A stretch of 64,000 nucleotides of DNA, from assembly GCA_003483855.1 (NCBI GenBank), contig DMXP01000005.1, forward strand, positions 29,202 through 93,201, in the 5' to 3' direction. The position numbers and the translations under genes are program-made. Under the pieces are notes generated by a model, which saw only the letters and a program-made list of their open reading frames with translations, searched no databases and had not been told where the DNA came from. The first letter of the stretch is position 1. Every line of letters starts with the position of its first letter. This DNA is from Candidatus Yonathbacteria bacterium (GTDB lineage Bacteria; Patescibacteriota; Minisyncoccia; Phycocordibacterales; UBA1550). Positions 9,897-62,273 of the stretch are shown here, piece after piece.

Positions 9897-10103
9897 CGTC
9901 CTGCCACCGAAGCGACAAGAGGTATGAATTAAAGATACCTTACCTCTATGCAAATTGCAAGCAGTTATCCACAGCCTCAAAACCTACCTCATCTTCCCTC
10001 TCCTCCACTCTTGAATTAGCAAATTCACTTACGTGTCATATCTTCTTATGGTCGCCCGACGAAATTTCCTTTTAGAAATTTTTTCGGGTAAACCACCCGA
10101 GGA

Positions 10104-10763
10104 CTACCTTAGTTTACCTTCTCTCCATTTTTCTATCGCAGAATGGTCGCCGGACAGTAATACCTTTGGGACTCGGTACTTTTTGCCTTTCCATTCTAGG
10201 ACTTCGGGGCGAGTGTACATCTCGGGGGAAGCAGTGCGTTCCTCCTCTAGCGATTCCATTTTCCCGAGCACGCCTTCAATCTGGCGCGCACAAGCGTCTA
10301 CGACAACCATTGCAGGCACTTCCCCGCCTGTGAGCACAAATGGCCCCACGGAAACCTCCTCCGCTTTGAAAATCTTTTTCACTCGCGCGTCAATACCTTC
10401 GTAGCGACCTGCTATCAAAATAATGTCTGTATATTTGGTAACAAGAGCTTTTGCGTACACGTTTGTAAATTGCTTGCCTCCTGGCGCAAACAAAATTACC
10501 TTCACTTTAGTATTCTTTTTGCGCGCAATACCTCTTGCAATCTTTTCAAGTGTGCGAAGCATCGGCTCTGCTGTCATTACCATCCCAGGACCTCCCGCGT
10601 ATGGGCGGTCATCCACCTTTCCCCATTTGTTACCGGCAAGCTCACGTGGGTCATAATACGAAACAGAGATGAGCTTCCCTTCCTGTGCACGACCAAGAAT
10701 AGACGCGTCCATATATGGACGTACAGCCTCTGGGAAAATAGTGACAATATGAAAACGAATCAT
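10104..10763 (-). CDS. trmD: tRNA (guanine37-N1)-methyltransferase
   Basis: MIRFHIVTIFPEAVRPYMDASILGRAQEGKLISVSYYDPRE...LTGGEVPAMVVVDACARQIEGVLG is TrmD (SPOUT). The start is trimmed to the Met at 10763. The ORF-track N-terminal extension is discounted. Confidence 0.9.
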   Translation of the reverse strand: MIRFHIVTIFPEAVRPYMDASILGRAQEGKLISVSYYDPRELAGNKWGKVDDRPYAGGPGMVMTAEPMLRTLEKIARGIARKKNTKVKVILFAPGGKQFTNVYAKALVTKYTDIILIAGRYEGIDARVKKIFKAEEVSVGPFVLTGGEVPAMVVVDACARQIEGVLGKMESLEEERTASPEMYTRPEVLEWKGKKYRVPKVLLSGDHSAIEKWREGKLR

Positions 10764-10766
10764 GAG

Positions 10767-10806
10767 GGGGTAGAATATCGAATATTGAATGTCGAAGTTG
10801 GAATGG
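10767..10806 (-). promoter_or_regulatory. array of NNNATTC heptamers / GAATAT-n3-ATATTC palindrome immediately upstream of trmD
   Basis: Coding-strand reading: cccattc caacttc gacattc aatattc gatattc tacc, then ccctc ATG. Related arrays occur at 16337-16372, 50976-50990, 51908-51927 and 62208-62263. Confidence 0.35.
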
Positions 10807-10886: not shown

Positions 10887-10929
10887 ATGCGAATCCTTGT
10901 ATTATTCAATATTCGATATTCTATTTCTC

Positions 10930-13896: not shown

Positions 13897-14760
13897 TTAA
13901 AATTCCTGACAGACTTGATCAACTTCTTCTACTACTCTTCCAATCTGTTCATCCGTAAAGCCAATTGATTTCAATGGAGCTGGATTATTCTTTAAATCGC
14001 GACACATCACAATTCCTTGTTCAAGTAAATTATTTTTGTCACTCTGACTAAGTGTAGAAAGAAATGTAAGCGGATGCACTCCCGTTTCCAAGATTAAATC
14101 CTGCAAATTGCCTTTTTCAGGATAGTCCCAGCCAATCACAGTGAGCCCAGAGCAATTCGCATATTGAATTGCATCACTCGTGAGCTTAGTGTTTGTAATG
14201 AGCCACCCCTCGTGAACTTTCTTTACCTCTCCTTCGTGTCTTTTATGCGCTTCATCGTGAGCTTTCTGCAAATCCATAAATCGCGCACGGACATAAAGCG
14301 CGACCTTCACGTCTGTTTTTATACCTTGCTGATTGTGGAACTTGCACTCTGCAAAAATATGCCTGTCGCCTTTTTCCATAAGCACGTCCACCTCGTGATC
14401 AACACAAAATCCCTGTAGAATTACACCTGTCTCTGCAGTGTAACCCTTTCCACGCAAAACTTCCGCGACAAATTTTTCAAATGGAAATCCGCTAGGCCCG
14501 AGCTCTAGCACTGCTTTCCTTAGCGAATAACGAATAGCGGCAGGATATTTTTTTTTCTTGAGAATAGAGTACGCGTGCTTGTAAATCTGCGAAGTCTTCA
14601 TCCCCTCGTGAAGCTCTGGGAGAATGTGCTCAACTATACGCTCTATAGTTTCATCGTCTGCACCAGAACGCGTAAGCGAACGACGAAGTTTATTAAGAGA
14701 AAATCGCTCACGCTCGCCAGTGCTTTTTATGACCCACACGTCATCTTGCTCTTTGTTCAT
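13897..14760 (-). CDS. ATP-cone domain fused to restriction-endonuclease-like PD-(D/E)xK domain protein
   Basis: N-terminus VWVIKSTGERERFSLNKLRRSLTRSGADDETIERIVEHI is an ATP-cone. The middle FEKFVAEVLRGKGYTAETGVILQGFCVDHEVDVLMEKGDRHIFAECKFHN is a D..EVD...ECK nuclease core. Start trimmed to MNKEQDD. Confidence 0.7.
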   Translation of the reverse strand: MNKEQDDVWVIKSTGERERFSLNKLRRSLTRSGADDETIERIVEHILPELHEGMKTSQIYKHAYSILKKKKYPAAIRYSLRKAVLELGPSGFPFEKFVAEVLRGKGYTAETGVILQGFCVDHEVDVLMEKGDRHIFAECKFHNQQGIKTDVKVALYVRARFMDLQKAHDEAHKRHEGEVKKVHEGWLITNTKLTSDAIQYANCSGLTVIGWDYPEKGNLQDLILETGVHPLTFLSTLSQSDKNNLLEQGIVMCRDLKNNPAPLKSIGFTDEQIGRVVEEVDQVCQEF

Positions 14761-14786
14761 ATTCCTTAGTTTAACACAATGAATAG

Positions 14787-14824
14787 GCAAAAGAAAAAGG
14801 TCGAGCTAAGATACTAGCTCGACC
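14787..14824 (-). terminator. rho-independent terminator
   Basis: Perfect 10-bp stem ggtcgagcta / tagctcgacc followed on the minus strand by tttttcttttgc. It lies about 320 nt downstream of the mnmA stop. Confidence 0.5.
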
Positions 14825-15143: not shown

Positions 15144-16268
15144 CTATCCCACTATTCCGCCACCAATACACTCTTTCCCATCATACAAAACTACTGATTG
15201 CCCTGCGTCAAAAACTGCTGGCTTTTCGAGGCGCAATGAAAAAGAATTTTCATTAACACTAGCAATCTTGCATTTGTACTGCTCGCCGTGGTAGCGCACC
15301 TGCGCGGTATATTTCCTTGCAGTATCAGGAATCGTTCCACTACAAAAACTCGCCTGCTCGGCTCGTAGCTCCTGCGAGGCGCACCCCAGTGCCTTTTTTG
15401 TATGAGGTGCAACCGTAATTGTATTTTTTTCAAAATCTTTTGCCACAACATAGAGTGGCGCATCGTCAGTACCTTTCTTCGTAACCATAAATCCATGACG
15501 TTCGCCAAGCGTAAAAAAGTATGTGCCACGATGCGTACCGATTATCTCGCCTTTTCCATTCAGCACACTTCCCTCTTTCTCCTCAATATAGTTCGCGAGA
15601 AAATCCTTCATATCAAGCTTGCCCACAAAACACAGTCCTTGCGAATCTTTTTTCTCCGCAACTGGCAAACCAAACTTTTTCGCAAGAGCGCGCACTTGCG
15701 ACTTTTTGTAACCGCCAATCGGGAAAAATGTTTTGCTCAGCTGTTCCTTTCCTAGTGTCCACAAAAAATACGATTGATCCTTGGTATCATCAACTCCCTT
15801 TAGCATTCTGTGTTTGCATTCACTTTTGACTTTTGACTTTTGACTTCGAATCAGCTGATTCGCGTCTTGGACGCAGACTACCTTTGCGTAGTGTCCTGTC
15901 GCCACAAAGTCCGCTCCCTCTTTCATGGCTCGTCTAAAAAATGCGCCAAACTTTACCTCGCGGTTGCACATTACATCGGGGTTCGGCGTGCGACCCTGCC
16001 TGTACTCCGCAATCATATAATCCGCCACGCCTTCTTTGTATTCCTTTTCAAAATCCCACGTGAGGAGGGGGATGCCAAGGGGCGCAGAAACGCGCATTGC
16101 GTCCAAACGCTCCTCACGCCACGTGCATGGCAAAAAATCCGGTTGCCATACCTTCATAAAAACACCCGTAACATCGTACCCTGCTTTTTGTAAAAGCGCT
16201 GCAGAAACTGACGAATCCACTCCGCCTGACATTCCAACATATACTTTACCCTTCGACTTTCTATTCAT
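15144..16268 (-). CDS. mnmA: tRNA-specific 2-thiouridylase
   Basis: VYVGMSGGVDSSVSAALL (PP-loop), ...KDQSYFL..., and a C-terminal beta-barrel. Contains an in-frame repeat-derived insertion (see repeat 15823-15874). Confidence 0.9.
   Translation of the reverse strand: MNRKSKGKVYVGMSGGVDSSVSAALLQKAGYDVTGVFMKVWQPDFLPCTWREERLDAMRVSAPLGIPLLTWDFEKEYKEGVADYMIAEYRQGRTPNPDVMCNREVKFGAFFRRAMKEGADFVATGHYAKVVCVQDANQLIRSQKSKVKSECKHRMLKGVDDTKDQSYFLWTLGKEQLSKTFFPIGGYKKSQVRALAKKFGLPVAEKKDSQGLCFVGKLDMKDFLANYIEEKEGSVLNGKGEIIGTHRGTYFFTLGERHGFMVTKKGTDDAPLYVVAKDFEKNTITVAPHTKKALGCASQELRAEQASFCSGTIPDTARKYTAQVRYHGEQYKCKIASVNENSFSLRLEKPAVFDAGQSVVLYDGKECIGGGIVG
15823..15874. repeat. 3x ttttgac heptamer plus 27-bp double palindrome (gaatcagctgattc + cgtcttggacg) embedded in frame in mnmA
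   Basis: cacttttgacttttgacttttgacttcGAATCAGCTGATTCgCGTCTTGGACG. The same double palindrome occurs at 54743-54770 and 57053-57080. Confidence 0.55.
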
Positions 16269-16336: not shown

Positions 16337-16372
16337 CCATTCCATGTTCTACATTCCAAATTCGACATTCTA
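16337..16372. repeat. degenerate NNcATTC heptamer array between mnmA and mltG
   Basis: ccattcc atgttc tacattc caaattc gacattc tatc. Confidence 0.3.
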
Positions 16373-26392: not shown

Positions 26393-26686
26393 AATCCGCT
26401 CACCATTTCCTTTTCTGTTGCACGCATAATTTTTTGCTAAAAATTTGACTCCAAGAGCGAACCAGCTGATTCGTCTGCTCGCCTCGCCAGGCTGTGCAAG
26501 GCACCAGAAAACGAAACGGCTCGCTCTGAGAAAAATCATGCGGTCGTCTTTTATGCAAAAAACAACCGCATCTGTTTAGGGTCTAAATTGCTCAAGGTGC
26601 GAGGCGTGGAATATTTTTACGCCCAAGACGTACACTCGTACGACGTGGGAGAAAAAATATTCCGCAACAAAGCAGATTGAGATAAC

Positions 26687-28142: not shown

Positions 28143-29144
28143 CTAATGCCCGCTGACTGCGCTGATGCATGCGTTGAACGCCTGCACGCCCGCATTGTAT
28201 GTTGCAACTGCAACTCTGTTTGCCTCTACGAGCGAGTTATATTGTGGCACCAGCGCGTTGTATTCATTTATATATGTATTGTAATTTGGATCATGTTGCG
28301 AAGTCGCATCAAGCAAGGCCTTTTTTGCGTCAAGCTTGGAACGCATGTCCGCTATCGTTGCGCTGGTTGAATCAATCTGAGCTTTGAGTGTTTGATCTGT
28401 TGCTGGACACGCTGACAATGGAAGCCCAAAACTTTGCACGGCGAGCCATGTCATATGACCATCATACATTCCTTTACCAACAGCAACGCCGATCTCCCTA
28501 TAATGCGTATTCAAAATATTCGCGCGATGACCGGGGCTGTTCATCCACGCGGTAACCACTCCAGCGTCGCCCGCAAAATCTCCTAGAGCGAGGTTTTCCC
28601 CTACTGTCACATATGCGTACCCGACAGCCTGAGCCAAGTCCGAAGGACCCACACCAGTTGGCGACACGTGTTCAAAGTATTGTTTTGCAAACATGTCATC
28701 AACCTTCATCTGCGCATCACGATTTAGAAGAGTATTTTCAGTAAGCGCAGGCAGTGCTCCATTTTGCGCTCGTTCTATGTTTGTGCGTTCTATTATTCCT
28801 CGCGCAGTAAGGTCTGTCGCGCTTGTAGTCTGTGTAATTGCCCGAAGTGGACCAGGAGTAACAACAGACTTCTCTACCACTGCCGTTTTTGGTACAAGAC
28901 TGCCGTTTGTCGCAGTTGCGGTTGTCGTTTTTGGTACGACCTTTTTTACTGTTGCTTGCGTGGATGTAGAAACAACTGTTTCTCGGCTTGGCCGTGGACT
29001 TAATTGCTCCTTTTTCGCAACAACTGGCATTTCTTGCGCTATTTCTCTCGGCGCAAAAGTCTCCCCGAGGTACGTGTACGAAAGCGCTCCCGCTCCTATG
29101 AGCGCCAAAATTCCCGCGAGAATTTTTATTATTGATGCCAGCAT
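28143..29144 (-). CDS. CAP/SCP (PR-1-like) domain protein with N-terminal TM anchor
   Basis: C-terminal GENLALGDFAGDAGVVTAWMNSPGHRANILNTHYREIGVAVG matches the bacterial SCP/YkwD pattern. Confidence 0.7.
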   Translation of the reverse strand: MLASIIKILAGILALIGAGALSYTYLGETFAPREIAQEMPVVAKKEQLSPRPSRETVVSTSTQATVKKVVPKTTTATATNGSLVPKTAVVEKSVVTPGPLRAITQTTSATDLTARGIIERTNIERAQNGALPALTENTLLNRDAQMKVDDMFAKQYFEHVSPTGVGPSDLAQAVGYAYVTVGENLALGDFAGDAGVVTAWMNSPGHRANILNTHYREIGVAVGKGMYDGHMTWLAVQSFGLPLSACPATDQTLKAQIDSTSATIADMRSKLDAKKALLDATSQHDPNYNTYINEYNALVPQYNSLVEANRVAVATYNAGVQAFNACISAVSGH

Positions 29145-42859: not shown

Positions 42860-43198
42860 CTTTCGATTCTCCTCGGAGTCACACAATAGCAAAAGATGTC
42901 CCGAGGCTCTCGGTCACGGGTTACTAATTAATTTTTGGATAGCCTCGTCGTGTACGACAGGTCTAAGACTAGCGTGTGGTCAACACGTAAGTAATTTTGC
43001 TAAATCAAAGTCACTAAGTCTACTCGTGTGTCGCGTTTCAATCGACACTACGCGACGCGATTTTGCAAAATCGACACTGCGTGGACGTAAGTGCTCGCGA
43101 CCCCAGAGTCCAAGATTAGGGCCAAGCCCCGAATTTGTTAATTCGAAATCTGCAGATTCGTCGTGGTTTTGCGTGCTCGCAAAACATCACTGCGCTTT
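42860..43198. repeat. mosaic noncoding repeats next to tRNA-Ala, including a 45-bp segment repeated at 57660-57704
   Basis: 43116-43160 ttagggccaagccccgaatttgttaattcgaaatctgcagattcg is near-identical to 57660-57704. An inverted partial copy of the tRNA-Ala T-arm (ttcgattctcctcgg) lies at 42866-42880. aatcgacact is duplicated. Confidence 0.45.
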
Positions 43199-50949: not shown

Positions 50950-50990
50950 GAATTAGCAAATTCGCGCCTGGCGCTATCGAATATTGAATG
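50950..50990 (-). promoter_or_regulatory. palindromic GAATT-n4-AATTC plus CATTCAATATTC motif pair upstream of clpB
   Basis: Coding-strand reading: cattcaatattcgat...cgaatttgctaattcg...aacattcaattcaa then ATG. The same two motifs precede the HtrA-like gene. Confidence 0.35.
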
Positions 50991-51903: not shown

Positions 51904-51907
51904 AGGG

Positions 51908-51956
51908 TTGAATATTGAATGTTGAATTAGCGTCCAAGACGTGAATTTGTTAATTC
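51908..51956 (-). promoter_or_regulatory. CATTCAATATTC heptamers + cgtccaagacg palindrome + GAATT-n4-AATTC palindrome upstream of the HtrA-like gene
   Basis: Coding-strand reading: gaattaacaaattc-acgtcttggacg-ctaattcaacattcaatattcaaccct then ATG. Confidence 0.35.
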
Positions 51957-52023
51957 AAGAATGTAGAACAAATGCGGATACAAATACTCTCAATTCTTTA
52001 TTATTGTAATTGTACAGCCTTGT

Positions 52024-53917: not shown

Positions 53918-54086
53918 GTTCCCCTCCTTGGCGAGGAATGTCTCTTGTGCGGGGACTTGCGAAAGCGACGGCTTGAGCACGAGGACGATTTAGCAAAATC
54001 GCACCTTGGGCTTTTCTAAAATAAATATCCGTACCTCATTCACCAGAATGACCTACGGGCAAGTCCACAAGACGACATCCGAGCAG
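53918..54086. repeat. copy A of the ~170-bp palindromic (MITE-like) structured element
   Basis: Aligns with 35061-35232. A 20-30 nt module present in the left arm of copy B (ggtcattctgctgaatgag) appears here as its reverse complement in the right arm (ctcattcaccagaatgacc). Confidence 0.5.
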
Positions 54087-54285: not shown

Positions 54286-54753
54286 ATGACACCAGAAGCT
54301 CTACAAATAACCGTTATCGTATTGAGCGTTATCATGATAGCGCTCTCTGCATTGGTTTTTGTATTAGAGCGTCGTATGAAAAAGCTACTCGCGGGGAAAG
54401 ACGCATTGAGTCTTGAGGAAACAATTGTAGCCCTGGGCAAAGACATTCGCGCTCTGGAAAAGTTTCAGTCAGATACGGAGAACTACATTACTGATTCAAA
54501 CAGACGCATCAAGCGAAGCATTCAAGGTGTTGAGACAATTCGTTTCAACGCTTTCAAAGGCAACGGTGAAGGAGGAAACCAAAGTTTCGCAATCGCGCTC
54601 CTGTCTGAAAATGGCGATGGAACGGTAATCTCCTCCCTCTTCGCTCGCGACCGAATGAGCATCTTTGCAAAGCCCATCAAAAACTTCACTTCCGAACTTG
54701 AAATGACAGACGAAGAAAAGGACGCGGTCAAACGCGCGACACCGAATCAGTAG
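54286..54753 (+). CDS. DUF4446-like small membrane protein
   Basis: N-terminal TM, then ...RFNAFKGNGEGGNQSFAIALLSENGDG... Its stop codon lies inside the 27-bp double-palindrome element. Confidence 0.55.
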   Translation: MTPEALQITVIVLSVIMIALSALVFVLERRMKKLLAGKDALSLEETIVALGKDIRALEKFQSDTENYITDSNRRIKRSIQGVETIRFNAFKGNGEGGNQSFAIALLSENGDGTVISSLFARDRMSIFAKPIKNFTSELEMTDEEKDAVKRATPNQ

Positions 54754-54770
54754 ATTCGCGTCTTGGACGT
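54743..54770. repeat. 27-bp double palindrome (gaatcagtagattc + cgtcttggacg)
   Basis: Same element as 15846-15874 and 57053-57080. Confidence 0.45.
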
Positions 54771-54819: not shown

Positions 54820-56355
54820 ATGACAAAAAATTCCACATCAAAAATAATTCCACGTCCGCCCATTGTTGTTATCATGGGGCATATTGACCATGGAAAGTCA
54901 TCGCTCCTTGACTACGTCCGCAAGACAAACGTTGTTGAGGGAGAAGCTGGTGGCATTACTCAGCACATTTCTGCATACGAGGTGTCACACCATCTTGACC
55001 AAACGCGAAAAGATGCGCTCGCGAGCAACCGCATCACTTTTCTAGATACTCCGGGGCACGAAGCTTTTTCAAAAATGCGCGCTCGTGGCGCAGGGGTAGC
55101 GGACATTGCTATTCTTGTAGTCTCAGCAGAAGACGGTGTGAAGGAGCAAACAAAAGAGGCGCTTCGTTCTATTAAAGAGGCCGGCATCCCGTACATTGTC
55201 GCCATCAATAAAATAGACAAGCCAAACGCAAACATTGAGCGCACAAAACAAAATCTCGCTGAGAACGAAATCTATCTTGAGGGATTCGGCGGTGACGTGC
55301 CATTCGTACCAATCTCTGCAAAGCTCGGCACCGGTGTGCCAGACCTTTTGGATATGATGCTTCTTGTTGCAGAAATGGAGAACCTTACAGGCGACACATC
55401 GCTTCCAGCAGAAGGAATTGTGGTGGAGTCAAACATTGATACAAAACGTGGCACATCCGCAACTCTCATCATTACAAATGGCACACTCAAAAAAGGAATG
55501 TTCATTCTCGCAGAGGAAAGCATGTCCCCTGTGCGCGTGATTGAAAACTTTCTAGGCAAGCAAGTTTCCGAAGCAACATTCTCATCCCCTGTTCAGATTA
55601 CCGGCTTTGACGCTCTCCCTGCTGTAGGAAGCACTTTCCGCGCGTACGCAAACAAAAAAGATGCTGAGAAGGTTCAGCTTGAACTCAGGGAAGCAAAGAG
55701 CAAGGAAAAAGTGAAGGAGATTGTGCGGACAATCCCGCTCGCAGACGACGCGCTTGTCGTGCCTATTGTTTTGAAATCAGACGTCGCAGGTACCCTTGAA
55801 GCGATTGAAAAAGAACTTGCTAAAATTGAGCGCGAGCGTGTTGTAATAAAAATCATCGCGAAGGGTGTCGGCACTATCGGTGAAAACGACGCGAAGCTCG
55901 CTTCTGGTTCAGACAGCGCCATCATCATTGGCTTCCACACAAAGGTAGAGCGTGGCGCACAAGATATTGCGGAGCGCTTTGGCATCACTATCAAAACTTT
56001 TGATATCATCTACAAACTTTCAGAGTGGTTAAACGAGGAGCTAGATCGTCGCACACCTAAAGTTATGGGCGAGGAAGTTGTTGGTATGGCAAAAATTCTC
56101 AAAACATTCAGCGCCACAAAGCACAAGCAGGTTATTGGTGGAAAGGTAACTTCAGGCACGCTTGAAGTTGGCGCGCAGGTAAAGATTATGCGTCGCGATG
56201 TTGAAATCGGTCGCGGAAAAATTGAAGGTCTCCAAGCGCAAAAACTTCCAGCGAAAAAAGTTGAGGAAGGAAACGAGTGCGGAATGATGATAGACGGAAA
56301 AATTGAAATTGCCGGCGGTGACGTGCTTGAAGCTTTTGTGATGAACGCCAAATAA
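54820..56355 (+). CDS. infB: translation initiation factor IF-2 (short form: G domain to C-terminus)
   Basis: [46 protein letters not shown]. Start trimmed to MTKNSTSK. The long N-terminal domains of canonical IF-2 are absent. Confidence 0.9.
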
Positions 56356-56526
56356 AGGCCACTCGCTAAATTCTTTTTAGGGTACGACTTTTTTGAAGCT
56401 TAAAAAAATCTGAAGTTTTCGCGCCGTCGCGCTCAAAACCCCCTAAAAAGCAATTTAGCTCGCTCTGAGTTAGGGGAGCCGACTTAAATTACGAATTGTG
56501 GTAGTATAAAAAATAATAAGAAAATC

Positions 56527-57052: not shown

Positions 57053-57080
57053 ACGTCCAAGACGTGAATCAGCTGATTCA
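57053..57080. repeat. 27-bp double palindrome (cgtccaagacg + gaatcagctgattc), inverted order relative to 54743-54770, abutting tRNA-Cys
   Basis: cgtccaagacgtgaatcagctgattc. Confidence 0.45.
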
Positions 57081-57499: not shown

Positions 57500-57720
57500 C
57501 AAAATTAACAAGCGGAAAGCGATAGCTTTTTGCGACTGTAATTTTGTAGTCCGGGATGGGACTCGAAAGCCGGAGGCGGGCACCTTGTGTAATCACAAGG
57601 TCGCTGAGGCGGGGTCGCGAGTACTTAGGAGCGAAGCGACTTAGTAACTCGGGCCAAGCTTAGGGCCAAGCCCCGAATTTGTTAATTCGAAATCTGCTGA
57701 TTCGTGACCGCGGACCATCC
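57500..57720 (+). repeat. post-tRNA-Leu noncoding repeats: inverted copy of the tRNA 3-prime end and the 45-bp segment shared with 43116-43160
   Basis: gtagtccgggatgggactcgaaagcc (57547-57572) is the reverse complement of the tRNA-Leu T-arm and acceptor. 57660-57704 ttagggccaagccccgaatttgttaattcgaaatctgctgattcg. Confidence 0.45.
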
Positions 57721-61777: not shown

Positions 61778-62179
61778 TTATTGAAACATAAACTGCATAA
61801 AGCTTGCCTGTTCGTCAGTCAAAAACGCAAAGAGTACTGTCTTGATAAGGATATACGCCCCGAGCATCACAAGGAACCCTACGCCAACACCTTGGAAAAT
61901 ACCGGTTGCCTTAGTCTTTGCTTCTTCTTTTTTAGGATTTAATATTAACAAAGCCCCAGCATACATAAAGCGAAGTGCAGCTAAAGGCACCGCAACAGCA
62001 AAGATTAAGAACTTTATAACATTATTAACTAGCATAATCAGATCATCAAATCCACAGTCTGGACCGTTGCATGGGATGCCAACTTGCGCCCACGCAAACA
62101 CTGGAACTGCAAAAAAAGTAAGCGACAAAATCCACGCTATTATTTTTTGATTTTTCATTACAGAATTTGTATTTTGCAT
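61778..62179 (-). CDS. small membrane protein, paralog 5 of 5 (signal peptide, CNGPDCGFDD)
   Basis: Signal peptide, CNGPDCGFDD, then ALRFMYAGALLILNPKKEEAKTKATGIFQGVGVGFLVMLGAYILI. Alternative start at MKNQKII. Confidence 0.55.
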   Translation of the reverse strand: MQNTNSVMKNQKIIAWILSLTFFAVPVFAWAQVGIPCNGPDCGFDDLIMLVNNVIKFLIFAVAVPLAALRFMYAGALLILNPKKEEAKTKATGIFQGVGVGFLVMLGAYILIKTVLFAFLTDEQASFMQFMFQ

Positions 62180-62207: not shown

Positions 62208-62263
62208 TACATTCTACATTCGACATTCTACATTCTACATTCTACATTCTACATTCAATATTC
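62208..62263. repeat. tandem heptamer array (tacattc)x8 upstream of the paralog array
   Basis: tacattc tacattc gacattc tacattc tacattc tacattc tacattc aatattc, read directly from the sequence. Confidence 0.6.
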
Positions 62264-62273
62264 TACCCTACCA

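Follow-up and report, generated by a model that had tools for sequence, protein, structure and literature searches.

A 27-nucleotide two-hairpin module in mnmA of Candidatus Yonathbacteria as a probable member of a clade-wide mini-repeat family

Several kinds of short palindromic repeat invite comparison with an element in a 64,000-nucleotide stretch of DNA from Candidatus Yonathbacteria (GenBank assembly GCA_003483855.1, contig DMXP01000005.1, positions 29,202 to 93,201), called here the window. The element is a 27-nucleotide module that can form two small hairpins and is inserted in frame in mnmA, the gene for tRNA 2-thiouridine synthase. For the repetitive extragenic palindromes (REPs) and bacterial interspersed mosaic elements (BIMEs) of Proteobacteria, Di Nocera et al. 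(2013, PMC3733652) distinguish GTAG- and CGTC-tagged REP superfamilies, record intragenic copies, and describe a single stem of 8 to 9 bp that has a GTAG or CGTC tag left unpaired on one side.

The module resembles these repeats in being short (27 nucleotides, within their 20 to 40), hairpin-forming, present in many copies per genome, and mostly extragenic. Both form mosaics with other motifs, both sometimes supply the stop codon of a gene, and in both a minority of copies lie in frame in genes, notably those for tRNA-modification and nucleic-acid enzymes. Both are linked in principle to single-tyrosine (Y1) transposases, namely REP-associated tyrosine transposases (RAYTs), and CGTC REPs are likewise without an identified dedicated transposase. 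However, where these repeats have a single stem of 8 to 9 bp, the module has a 6-bp and a 4-bp stem, and its CGTC is no unpaired tag, but is paired with GACG and is replaced, with compensation, by GGGC, CGGC, TGTC, CATC, and others. Further differences are that about a quarter of module copies are intragenic, that one module sequence is common to a whole class-level clade of candidate phyla radiation (CPR) bacteria, and that the RAYT-like genes found have other flanking palindromes. Formal membership among the REPs fails on tag and on stem architecture, and no transposase could be linked to the module as its cognate enzyme. REP doublets forming hairpins (REPINs; Bertels and Rainey 2011, PMC3116915) have an inverted REP pair as their unit, whereas the module occurs mostly as singletons. 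The first-pass annotation of the window had also likened the element to miniature inverted-repeat transposable elements, a likeness that does not extend to its structure, in which neither terminal inverted repeats nor a target-site duplication (TSD) was found.

Rickettsia palindromic elements (RPEs), as summarised in PMC3733652 and PMC1779305, are likewise palindromic repeats in frame in protein genes of a reduced-genome bacterium, with peptides at tolerated surface positions. Their targets include tRNA-modification genes, as do those of the module. The module differs in sequence and host clade, is 27 nucleotides long where the classical RPE-1 has about 100 to 150 bp, and has the same DNA used in three frames. 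The small dispersed repeats (SDRs) of Nostocales (Elhai et al. 2008, Genome Res 18:1484) enter the comparison through citing passages in PMC3116915 and PMC5861425. Their hosts belong to a different phylum from those of the module. SDR4 to SDR6 are reportedly mobile-looking units of 21 to 27 nucleotides with hairpin potential, nested or adjacent insertions, and no known transposase, and they are said to coexist with abundant tandem heptanucleotide repeats (short tandemly repeated repetitive, or STRR, arrays). Insertion sequences (ISs) of the IS200/IS605 type share with the module seamless insertion and excision without TSD, and their small hairpins, not inverted terminal repeats, are what is recognised. 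A bona fide TnpA with flanking hairpins occurs in one relative, and that hairpin stands solo beside the module elsewhere. Nevertheless, the module has no demonstrable conserved target tetranucleotide, no strand bias, and no direct link to TnpA, and it is far shorter than any described derivative.

CPR (Patescibacteria) genomes are generally regarded as streamlined, and our literature search found no description of REP-like repeats in this group. We consider it probable that the insert in mnmA belongs to a clade-wide, non-autonomous family of hairpin-forming mini-repeats of the REP/BIME/SDR type, possibly moved by Y1 transposases. The first-pass proposal of a REP/BIME-like palindromic unit that colonises coding sequence agrees with its many clade-wide copies, its mosaics with other small modules, and its presence or absence at orthologous sites.

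Structure and distribution of the module

The mnmA open reading frame (ORF; 15144..16268, minus strand) is intact and encodes 374 amino acids. Its closest homologs are named tRNA 2-thiouridine(34) synthase and have PF03054, PF20259, and PF20258, and an identical protein (HAS84842.1) comes from a metagenome-assembled genome (MAG) of Candidatus Yonathbacteria. The first-pass description of a repeat that leaves this frame unbroken is accurate in sequence: (TTTTGAC)x3 at 15824-15844 is followed by ttC-GAATCAGCTGATTC-G-CGTCTTGGACG at 15847-15873. The program TRF places the heptamer array at 15822..15846 on the plus strand, with a 100% match, and it reads SQKSKVKS on the mnmA strand. The module itself (copy A, 15847-15873, plus strand, antisense to mnmA) has the form C-GAATC-AGCT-GATTC-G + CGTC-TTG-GACG and is read (C)VQDANQLI(R). 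Across the repeat, the sense strand of mnmA encodes ..VVCVQDANQLIRSQKSKVKSEC.. (amino acids 130 to 155), with the repeat-derived insert at about residues 132 to 155.

The 27-mer consists of two directly abutting hairpins, Y-GAATY-NNNN-RATTC-R (6 bp with a 4-nucleotide loop) and NNNC-TTG-GNNN (4 bp with a 3-nucleotide loop). Two palindromes had been claimed on first inspection, and the module stands, but CGTCTTGGACG is a 4-bp stem with a 3-nucleotide loop, not an 11-bp palindrome. The pairing was tested on 105 unique instances, for which the search pattern leaves free six loop and stem positions and the base taken as a linker between the hairpins. The base before GAAT pairs with this "linker" in 104 of the 105 (C-G 42, T-A 59, A-T 3, mismatch 1); because this flanking pyrimidine pairs with the purine of the linker, the unit is a 27-mer of two abutting hairpins. 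Stem positions 5 and 10 of hairpin 1 also pair in all but one instance (C-G 60, T-A 42, T.G 2, mismatch 1; 104 of 105). Among 137 distinct module sequences, both-sided changes occur in 8 of 10 base pairs, and the covariation score is 0.326, compared with 0.132 in shuffles and no more than 0.116 when the register was slid, although this set was chosen for pairing and the unbiased evidence is the 105-instance test. Where the search leaves hairpin 2 free, it too varies with compensation (CGGC/GCCG, CGCC/GGCG, GGGC/GCCC, GGTC/GACC, TGTC/GACA, CATC/GATG). A short 3' tail is usual, nARAC, that is, T/C-A-R-A-C, and it covaries with the closing pair. As DNA, the hairpins are weak, at -4 to -7 kcal/mol.

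Related genome and metagenome stretches are labelled here L with a number, MnmA homologs P with a number, and the window W; gene calls are mechanical ORFs throughout. A scan of one genome per species for the exact pattern found at least 100 genome stretches with the module, and 97 of those listed come from Paceibacteria-type CPR MAGs. The labels among the matches listed are Yonathbacteria, Nomurabacteria, Paceibacterota, and Minisyncoccia, with some Saccharibacteria or Gracilibacteria. Chance accounts for the three outliers among the 100 listed stretches, and in at least one of these, L093, the match falls in DNA that codes for "..ILVLDEA.." (Walker B). Fortuitous matches to the search pattern, GAATN6ATTCNCGTCTTGGACG, arise where DNA encodes the ABC-transporter/DEAD-box motif "xILVLDEA" (L093, L121, L183, L222); such matches occur among metagenome contigs too, and censuses of the repeat must screen them out. 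The metagenome scan found at least 120 stretches with the module, whereas the sole match among viral contigs is a chance, non-hairpin one. When 788 kb were scanned with a relaxed structural pattern, 141 copies emerged, compared with none in the reversed sequence. After removal of duplicates between MAG and metagenome copies by comparison of flanks, 222 non-redundant copies remain in 1.65 Mb of related DNA. Species with proteins that are just 65 to 85% identical have almost the same 27-mer, and the module is specific to a CPR clade. Most stretches hold a single copy, and only a few inverted pairs lie within 200 nucleotides (for example, in L011 and L049). Recurrent partners of the module in mosaics are a second hairpin-1 unit, heptamer arrays, GGCTYGGCC-ATAAAC tails, and IS200-type hairpins.

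At least seven good members of the family are present in the window, not the three initially counted. Of the two further copies that had been reported, both real, copy B (54743-54769, plus strand) has the hairpin-1 loop AGTA and supplies, as TAG at 54751-54753, the codon at which the DUF4446 gene stops. Beside it, the mechanical ORF list starts infB at a TTG in the loop of hairpin 2 (54763), while the conserved start in relatives is the ATG at 54820; the module is thus a source of assembly and annotation artefacts. Copy C (57054-57080, minus strand) ends one base before tRNA-Cys (57081) and is simply the reverse complement, not a unit in "inverted order." What had been read as a half-site at 51931 is a full copy (copy D, 51931-51957, minus strand) with a compensated hairpin 1, GAATTAACAAATTC, and lies within a mosaic of about 60 nucleotides (51905-51970) with GAATATTGAATG and GAATGTAGAA modules. 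A divergent coding copy, AGAAACAACTGTTTCT-CGGCTTGGCCG (28968-28994, plus strand), read as PRPSRETVVS, falls where the gene for a CAP-domain protein (28143..29144, minus strand) encodes the N-terminal linker. Two variant copies on the minus strand share one architecture, C-GAATTAACAAATTC-G + GGGC-TTG-GCCC, with GGGCTTGGCCC as hairpin 2: that at 43119-43145 lies downstream of tRNA-Ala and is abutted by another hairpin-1-like unit (GAATCTGCAGATTTC), and that at 57663-57689 lies between two tRNA-Leu genes within a larger nested palindrome. The relaxed scan adds a weak copy at 53986-54012. The second reported half-site, near 26467-26480, is a lone degenerate hairpin 1 with one mismatch (GAACCAGCTGATTC, 26459-26472, plus strand), and a lone hairpin-2-like unit (CGTCTTGGGCG, 26620-26630, minus strand) shares its convergent spacer. 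A further lone hairpin-1 unit, GAATTAGCAAATTC, occurs at 50950-50990, where a different mini-hairpin (GCGCCTGGCGC) and a GAATATTGAATG module follow at 50964, and a second copy of GAATTAGCAAATTC stands by itself at 10013-10026; single hairpin units therefore disperse too. Pfam supports the gene names DUF4446, IF-2, RbfA, and trypsin-like peptidase.

Chance recurrence of the repeat, or an insert ancestral to MnmA, would be favored by the small number of copies seen by eye in one window, and by nothing more. The half motifs GAATCAGCTGATTC and CGTCTTGGACG each occur five times in the window, compared with 0.32 and 0.56 expected, and none of 100 dinucleotide-preserving shuffles reaches five matches for either. 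Hundreds of copies exist elsewhere, in the genome and metagenome stretches counted above, and solved MnmA structures and most close homologs are without the insert. This explanation is refuted by these observations, and we give it practically no weight.

Gain and loss at orthologous sites

The module was followed across 99 alignments that span empty sites at all loci. At least seven distinct orthologous filled and empty sites differ by exactly 27 nucleotides, as in the pairs L107/L070, L115/L140, L098/L203, L039/L035, L124/L050, and L166/L062, and no flank is duplicated. Where the flanks of orthologous sites are less than 96% identical, 19 sites are intact, 9 are empty, and 2 are in another state, one of these (L054) with a 16-nucleotide hairpin-1 unit inserted between hairpins 1 and 2. 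No TSD is evident above background (mean shared flank word of 2.9 versus 2.7 nucleotides), and there is no closing outer stem. The flanks of orthologues are 70 to 94% identical, so that insertion boundaries are not fixable to a single base; with flanks of this identity, the nARAC tail is conserved in filled sites and inconsistently present in empty ones.

The copies of the window behave in the same manner. L070, L016, L032, and L179 lack copy B at their DUF4446-infB junction, the orthologous site. L099 and L032 have copy C, with hairpin 1 changed by a compensatory pair, whereas L070 and L016 cleanly lack it; the mosaic around copy D is absent as a whole from L032. Conversely, the window is empty at two sites where relatives are filled: in trmD (10505-10526, minus strand), where the orthologue in L024 carries the module read as RPRRESADS, and in the infB-rbfA spacer (56420-56443, plus strand; CGCGCCGTCGC|GCTCAAAACCCCC), where the metagenome relatives L148 and L155 have a 27-mer precisely at the position of the bar. 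The order DUF4446-infB-rbfA-small ORF-tRNA-Cys is unchanged in relatives with neither or one of the copies, and the proposal that copies B and C bracket infB-rbfA as a unit therefore describes a coincidence. These alignments show that the module comes and goes as one discrete unit and that no target duplication accompanies it. Turnover, between close relatives, of a mini-repeat that is clade-wide and under structural constraint bears on genome dynamics in these bacteria, and the module is usable as a marker for strain typing.

In mnmA, alignment with solved MnmA structures in the Protein Data Bank places a 15-residue insertion of the window protein at a beta-hairpin turn. The AlphaFold (AF2) model has strands at residues 129-133 and 152-156, and the insert between them is mostly of low confidence (pLDDT <50 over 136-147); the insert is thus predicted to form the tip of a surface beta-hairpin. 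Alignment of MnmA orthologues, which had been proposed as a check on the insertion, bears out that it is lineage-specific: among 120 close homologs, the segment between TGHY and KDQSYF has 20 amino acids in most (QVKHDKKSGTFAMLKGVDDA-like). Some homologs carry heptamer-encoded strings in this loop (VKSQKSK, VESRKLK), four (P0031, P0039, P0057, P0070) carry the hairpin module in another frame, as SLRPRRKSADS, and others carry further repeat-like inserts. The states are interspersed on a neighbor-joining tree, and the nearest relatives of the window protein (82 to 85% identity) show four different repeat-derived states; therefore, the loop is a recurrent hotspot for repeats. The 90% cluster of this protein has only three members and is uninformative on polymorphism within the species. 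Further insert types in the loop are found in P0023, P0033, P0036, and P0081 and in P0002, P0005, P0058, P0097, P0019, P0049, and P0060; they include GDRGxTRTxRGxT and CATCTGA/CAATTGT heptamers (L001), and one, QQTTNNKQ...SSVVSCKLLV, resembles the read-through product of two heptamer arrays in inverted arrangement.

At the DNA level, L101 has (GTCAAAR)x3 in mnmA and no hairpins, and the window equals L101 plus a net 27 nucleotides. In L102, two heptamers accompany these hairpins, the upstream side is longer by 10 nucleotides, and the downstream side is shorter by one heptamer. The 10 nucleotides switch the frame and the missing heptamer restores it; the same DNA is therefore read there in a different frame (RPRRKSADS, compared with VQDANQLI in the window). 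The module remodels loops of essential enzymes (MnmA, TrmD) and of other proteins.

The three heptamers before copy A had been suspected of being a TSD. However, L101 and L047 both have heptamers at the mnmA site without hairpins, L179 has TTTTGAC-type heptamers at the DUF4446 junction where the window has hairpins, and the junction (TTTYGAC)n-TTC-GAATCAGCTGATTC recurs at unrelated loci. Because L101 has heptamers without hairpins, the heptamers pre-date the hairpin insertion or are independent of it and are not a TSD; they are a separate module of the mosaic. The same arrays suggest another explanation, in which the hairpins arise locally from TTTYGAC arrays by slippage, template switching, or gene conversion and spread by recombination between strains, with no transposase. 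Hairpin 2 (C-TTGGAC-G) indeed resembles TTTTGAC and TTTGGAC units, the empty mnmA site of L101 (..GACTTTGGACTACC..) overlaps the hairpin-2 half, relatives without hairpins carry heptamers at two sites of the window (mnmA and the 3' end of DUF4446), a period of 7 or 14 is found in 14 of the 24 tandem-repeat rows of the window, and the 16-nucleotide unit between the hairpins of L054 would fit as well. Yet most copies have no heptamers nearby, the same 27-mer with its tail is a clean 27-nucleotide indel at dozens of unrelated coding and noncoding sites, and identical sequences could not come from independent local origins. A heptamer-slippage origin is accordingly less likely than dispersal of a repeat family, and we judge it improbable.

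Outside ORFs, the module is enriched about 15-fold, by crude ORF calls under which about 85% of the DNA is coding, with no significant preference among convergent, divergent, and tandem spacers. Within ORFs of at least 200 amino acids lie 59 of the 222 copies, few of them chance matches (four of the ABC/DEAD type and one doubtful case were set aside). The genuine copies are read as RPRRESADS (22), ESADSRLGR (21), (Y)VQDANQLIR (9), and NQQIxVLD (2), so that 52 of about 54 use three of the six frames, and the frame stays open in every long-ORF copy. Of the unused frames, one has stop codons and another is open but hydrophobic. Because the frames are restricted to three, the distribution argues for intragenic copies being translated and filtered at the level of the protein, and the restriction counts against a splicing or bypass mechanism. 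The module is also a natural experiment on the nine-residue peptides that proteins tolerate.

A clade-wide sequence in both orientations, in coding and noncoding DNA and with preferred frames, also recalls the DNA uptake sequences (DUSs) and uptake signal sequences (USSs) of Neisseriaceae and Pasteurellaceae, and CPR bacteria encode competence machinery. The module might then serve uptake or self-recognition of DNA in natural transformation. Against this role, its density in the window is about one per 8 to 16 kb, roughly ten-fold sparser than the DUS/USS density of about one per kb, it is strongly enriched between genes, and it arrives as a discrete 27-nucleotide indel and not by point mutation. 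Moreover, covariation within a strand would be pointless in a site recognised as duplex. An uptake role is less likely still, and we regard it as very improbable.

Candidate transposases and mode of movement

A search with E. coli RayT by tblastn gave sub-threshold matches only, which were later shown to mark RAYT-like ORFs. Five such ORFs are known among the relatives (L197 2011-2739, L184, L085, L086, and L055), with NF047646 (REP-associated tyrosine transposase) as best NCBIfam match at 18 to 44 bits, compared with a cut-off of 80. CTTGG/CCAAG occurs within the flanking palindrome in three of the five (L197, L184, L085), the 27-mer lies about 100 nucleotides outside the palindrome in two (L085, L086), and one of these palindromes is itself dispersed, with 17 copies. 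L197 also encodes an IS200-type TnpA (1534-1965; PF01797, E=4e-37; NF033573, 132 bits), with the hairpin CCCTGTGGTCTCTGCCACAGGGA on either side. In L011, L048, L023, and other loci, close variants of this hairpin stand solo beside members of the 27-mer family. The presence of Y1 transposases and palindromes in relatives makes TSD-free, single-strand transposition of the module by such enzymes plausible. An enriched transposase near the elements was considered and rejected; the clustered ORFs within 400 bp are only housekeeping families (DnaG, RbfA, RF-1, DUF4446, LepA, and others). Along L197 1424-2765, the order is a REP-like hairpin (ACTTGGACGTCGGGTTTCCAAGT), the IS200-type IS (hairpin, tnpA, hairpin), the RAYT-like ORF, and the ACTTGGACGTCGGGTTTCCAAGT hairpin again, with two more inverted copies of ACTTGGACGTCGGGTTTCCAAGT inside the RAYT-like ORF.

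In the mechanism that we propose, the module would move on single-stranded DNA, with a Y1/HUH transposase, IS200 or RAYT-like, acting on it in trans, and such "peel-and-paste" transposition would account for seamless indels without TSD. The module combines with extra hairpin-1 copies, TTTYGAC heptamer arrays, and IS200-type end hairpins. Copies accumulate mostly between genes; inside genes they persist because the unit is exactly nine codons, and nearly all are in one of the three frames that give hydrophilic peptides (ESADSRLGR, RPRRESADS, VQDANQLIR). Any benefit to the host would be secondary. A stronger version, which we hold only tentatively and think rather doubtful, is that the 27-nucleotide module is itself a transposable unit, among the smallest known, moved class-wide in CPR bacteria by RAYT/IS200-like Y1 transposases, and that with heptamer arrays it rewrites surface loops of housekeeping proteins. 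If this were true, the module and its slippage-prone heptamer arrays would form a cassette system that rewrites such loops. The module also offers a concrete substrate for probing RAYT-like Y1 transposases of uncultured CPR bacteria.

Several observations weigh against a mobile family driven by Y1 enzymes. The cognate transposase that the first-pass annotation had suggested looking for was not found: there is no transposase in the window and none that is directly flanked by the module, and each RAYT-like ORF is flanked by a long palindrome of its own. No fixed target motif is demonstrable in the empty sites, and the unbiased orientation of copies (four on each strand of the window) gives no support for strand-biased insertion into single-stranded DNA. 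Scans of the sequence collections held hairpin 2 fixed in the search pattern, which biases ascertainment, and the covariation may in part reflect amplification of a few subfamilies. Orthologous copies differ by 0.04 per site in stems, 0.13 in loops, and 0.10 in flanks, with few independent pairs and with the same ascertainment bias, and conservation beyond that of the flanks could reflect selection at the level of the host instead of selfish spread.

The main rival explanation follows from the last of these points. The module would be a cis element selected by the host, a binding site or structural signal on RNA or DNA that might, for instance, protect or help process the 3' ends of mRNAs or be bound by a nucleoid or replication protein; purifying selection would keep it intact, and it would not be actively mobile today. 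Its sequence is nearly identical across a class-level clade, W, L099, and L032 have all kept copy C, with a compensatory change in the stem, and sites are either intact or empty and seldom decayed. The nearest gene end is slightly more often 3' than 5' (60 versus 43), and on the forward strand G.T wobbles outnumber A.C mismatches by 9 to 3, a difference that is not significant. However, orientation relative to neighboring genes shows no significant bias (25 versus 14 in tandem spacers; 30 versus 30 relative to the upstream gene), there is no T-run or other terminator feature, copies in ORFs take both orientations, and the module is exactly present or absent, as 27 nucleotides, at many unrelated sites. 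The Rfam 15 covariance models, applied to the window and 18 loci, matched only tRNAs, 16S rRNA, and a group I intron, and none covers the module. We therefore think a purely host-selected, immobile signal unlikely. A structural signal of this kind is compatible with mobility, and REPs are thought to be both host-functional and mobile.

Accompanying repeats and neighboring genes

A larger nested palindrome, GGGGTCGCGAGTACTTAGGAGCGAAGCGACTTAGTAACTCGGG.., occurs at 57608-57720 and 43090-43160, with small hairpin modules at or near its apex. L038 (2100-3200) has a 27-mer inside outer arms of the same GGGGTCGCGAGTACTTAGGAGCGAAGCGACTTAGTAACTCGGG type, and two copies of this entire unit lie about 1 kb from each other, beside a group I intron (Rfam, 73 bits). 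A noncoding locus with the arrangement ..TTATTAGCGACGTAGAC-[27-mer]-AAGACAAAA..AAGTAATCTTTTT..CCGAGCCGAGGAGCTAATAT.. is conserved in 12 loci (L007, L011, L018, L021, L023, L040, L045, L046, L049, L062, L074, L088). This locus is often preceded by a terminator-like hairpin and close to tRNA genes, in some cases has a second, inverted 27-mer 100 to 170 nucleotides away, and may represent an unannotated RNA or a cluster of repeats.

Tandem heptamers of another type, GAATGTA/GAATATY, lie just upstream of genes at 62208-62266, 16338-16370, 10773-10796, 10903-10921, and 51908-51927; one example has 8.4 units and ends about 30 nucleotides before a start at 62179. These arrays contain repeated TAGAAT hexamers, which are -10-like, and may be associated with promoters. 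In L081 (1569-3251), the 16S rRNA gene spans 1683 nucleotides, compared with the 1533 positions of the model, which suggests that it has an insertion. Directly downstream of mnmA in the window, a gene at 13897-14790 encodes a protein with an ATP-cone, an Mrr-type restriction-endonuclease fold, and an AF1548-like C-terminal part, and this gene adjoins mnmA in L001, L101, and L102 as well.

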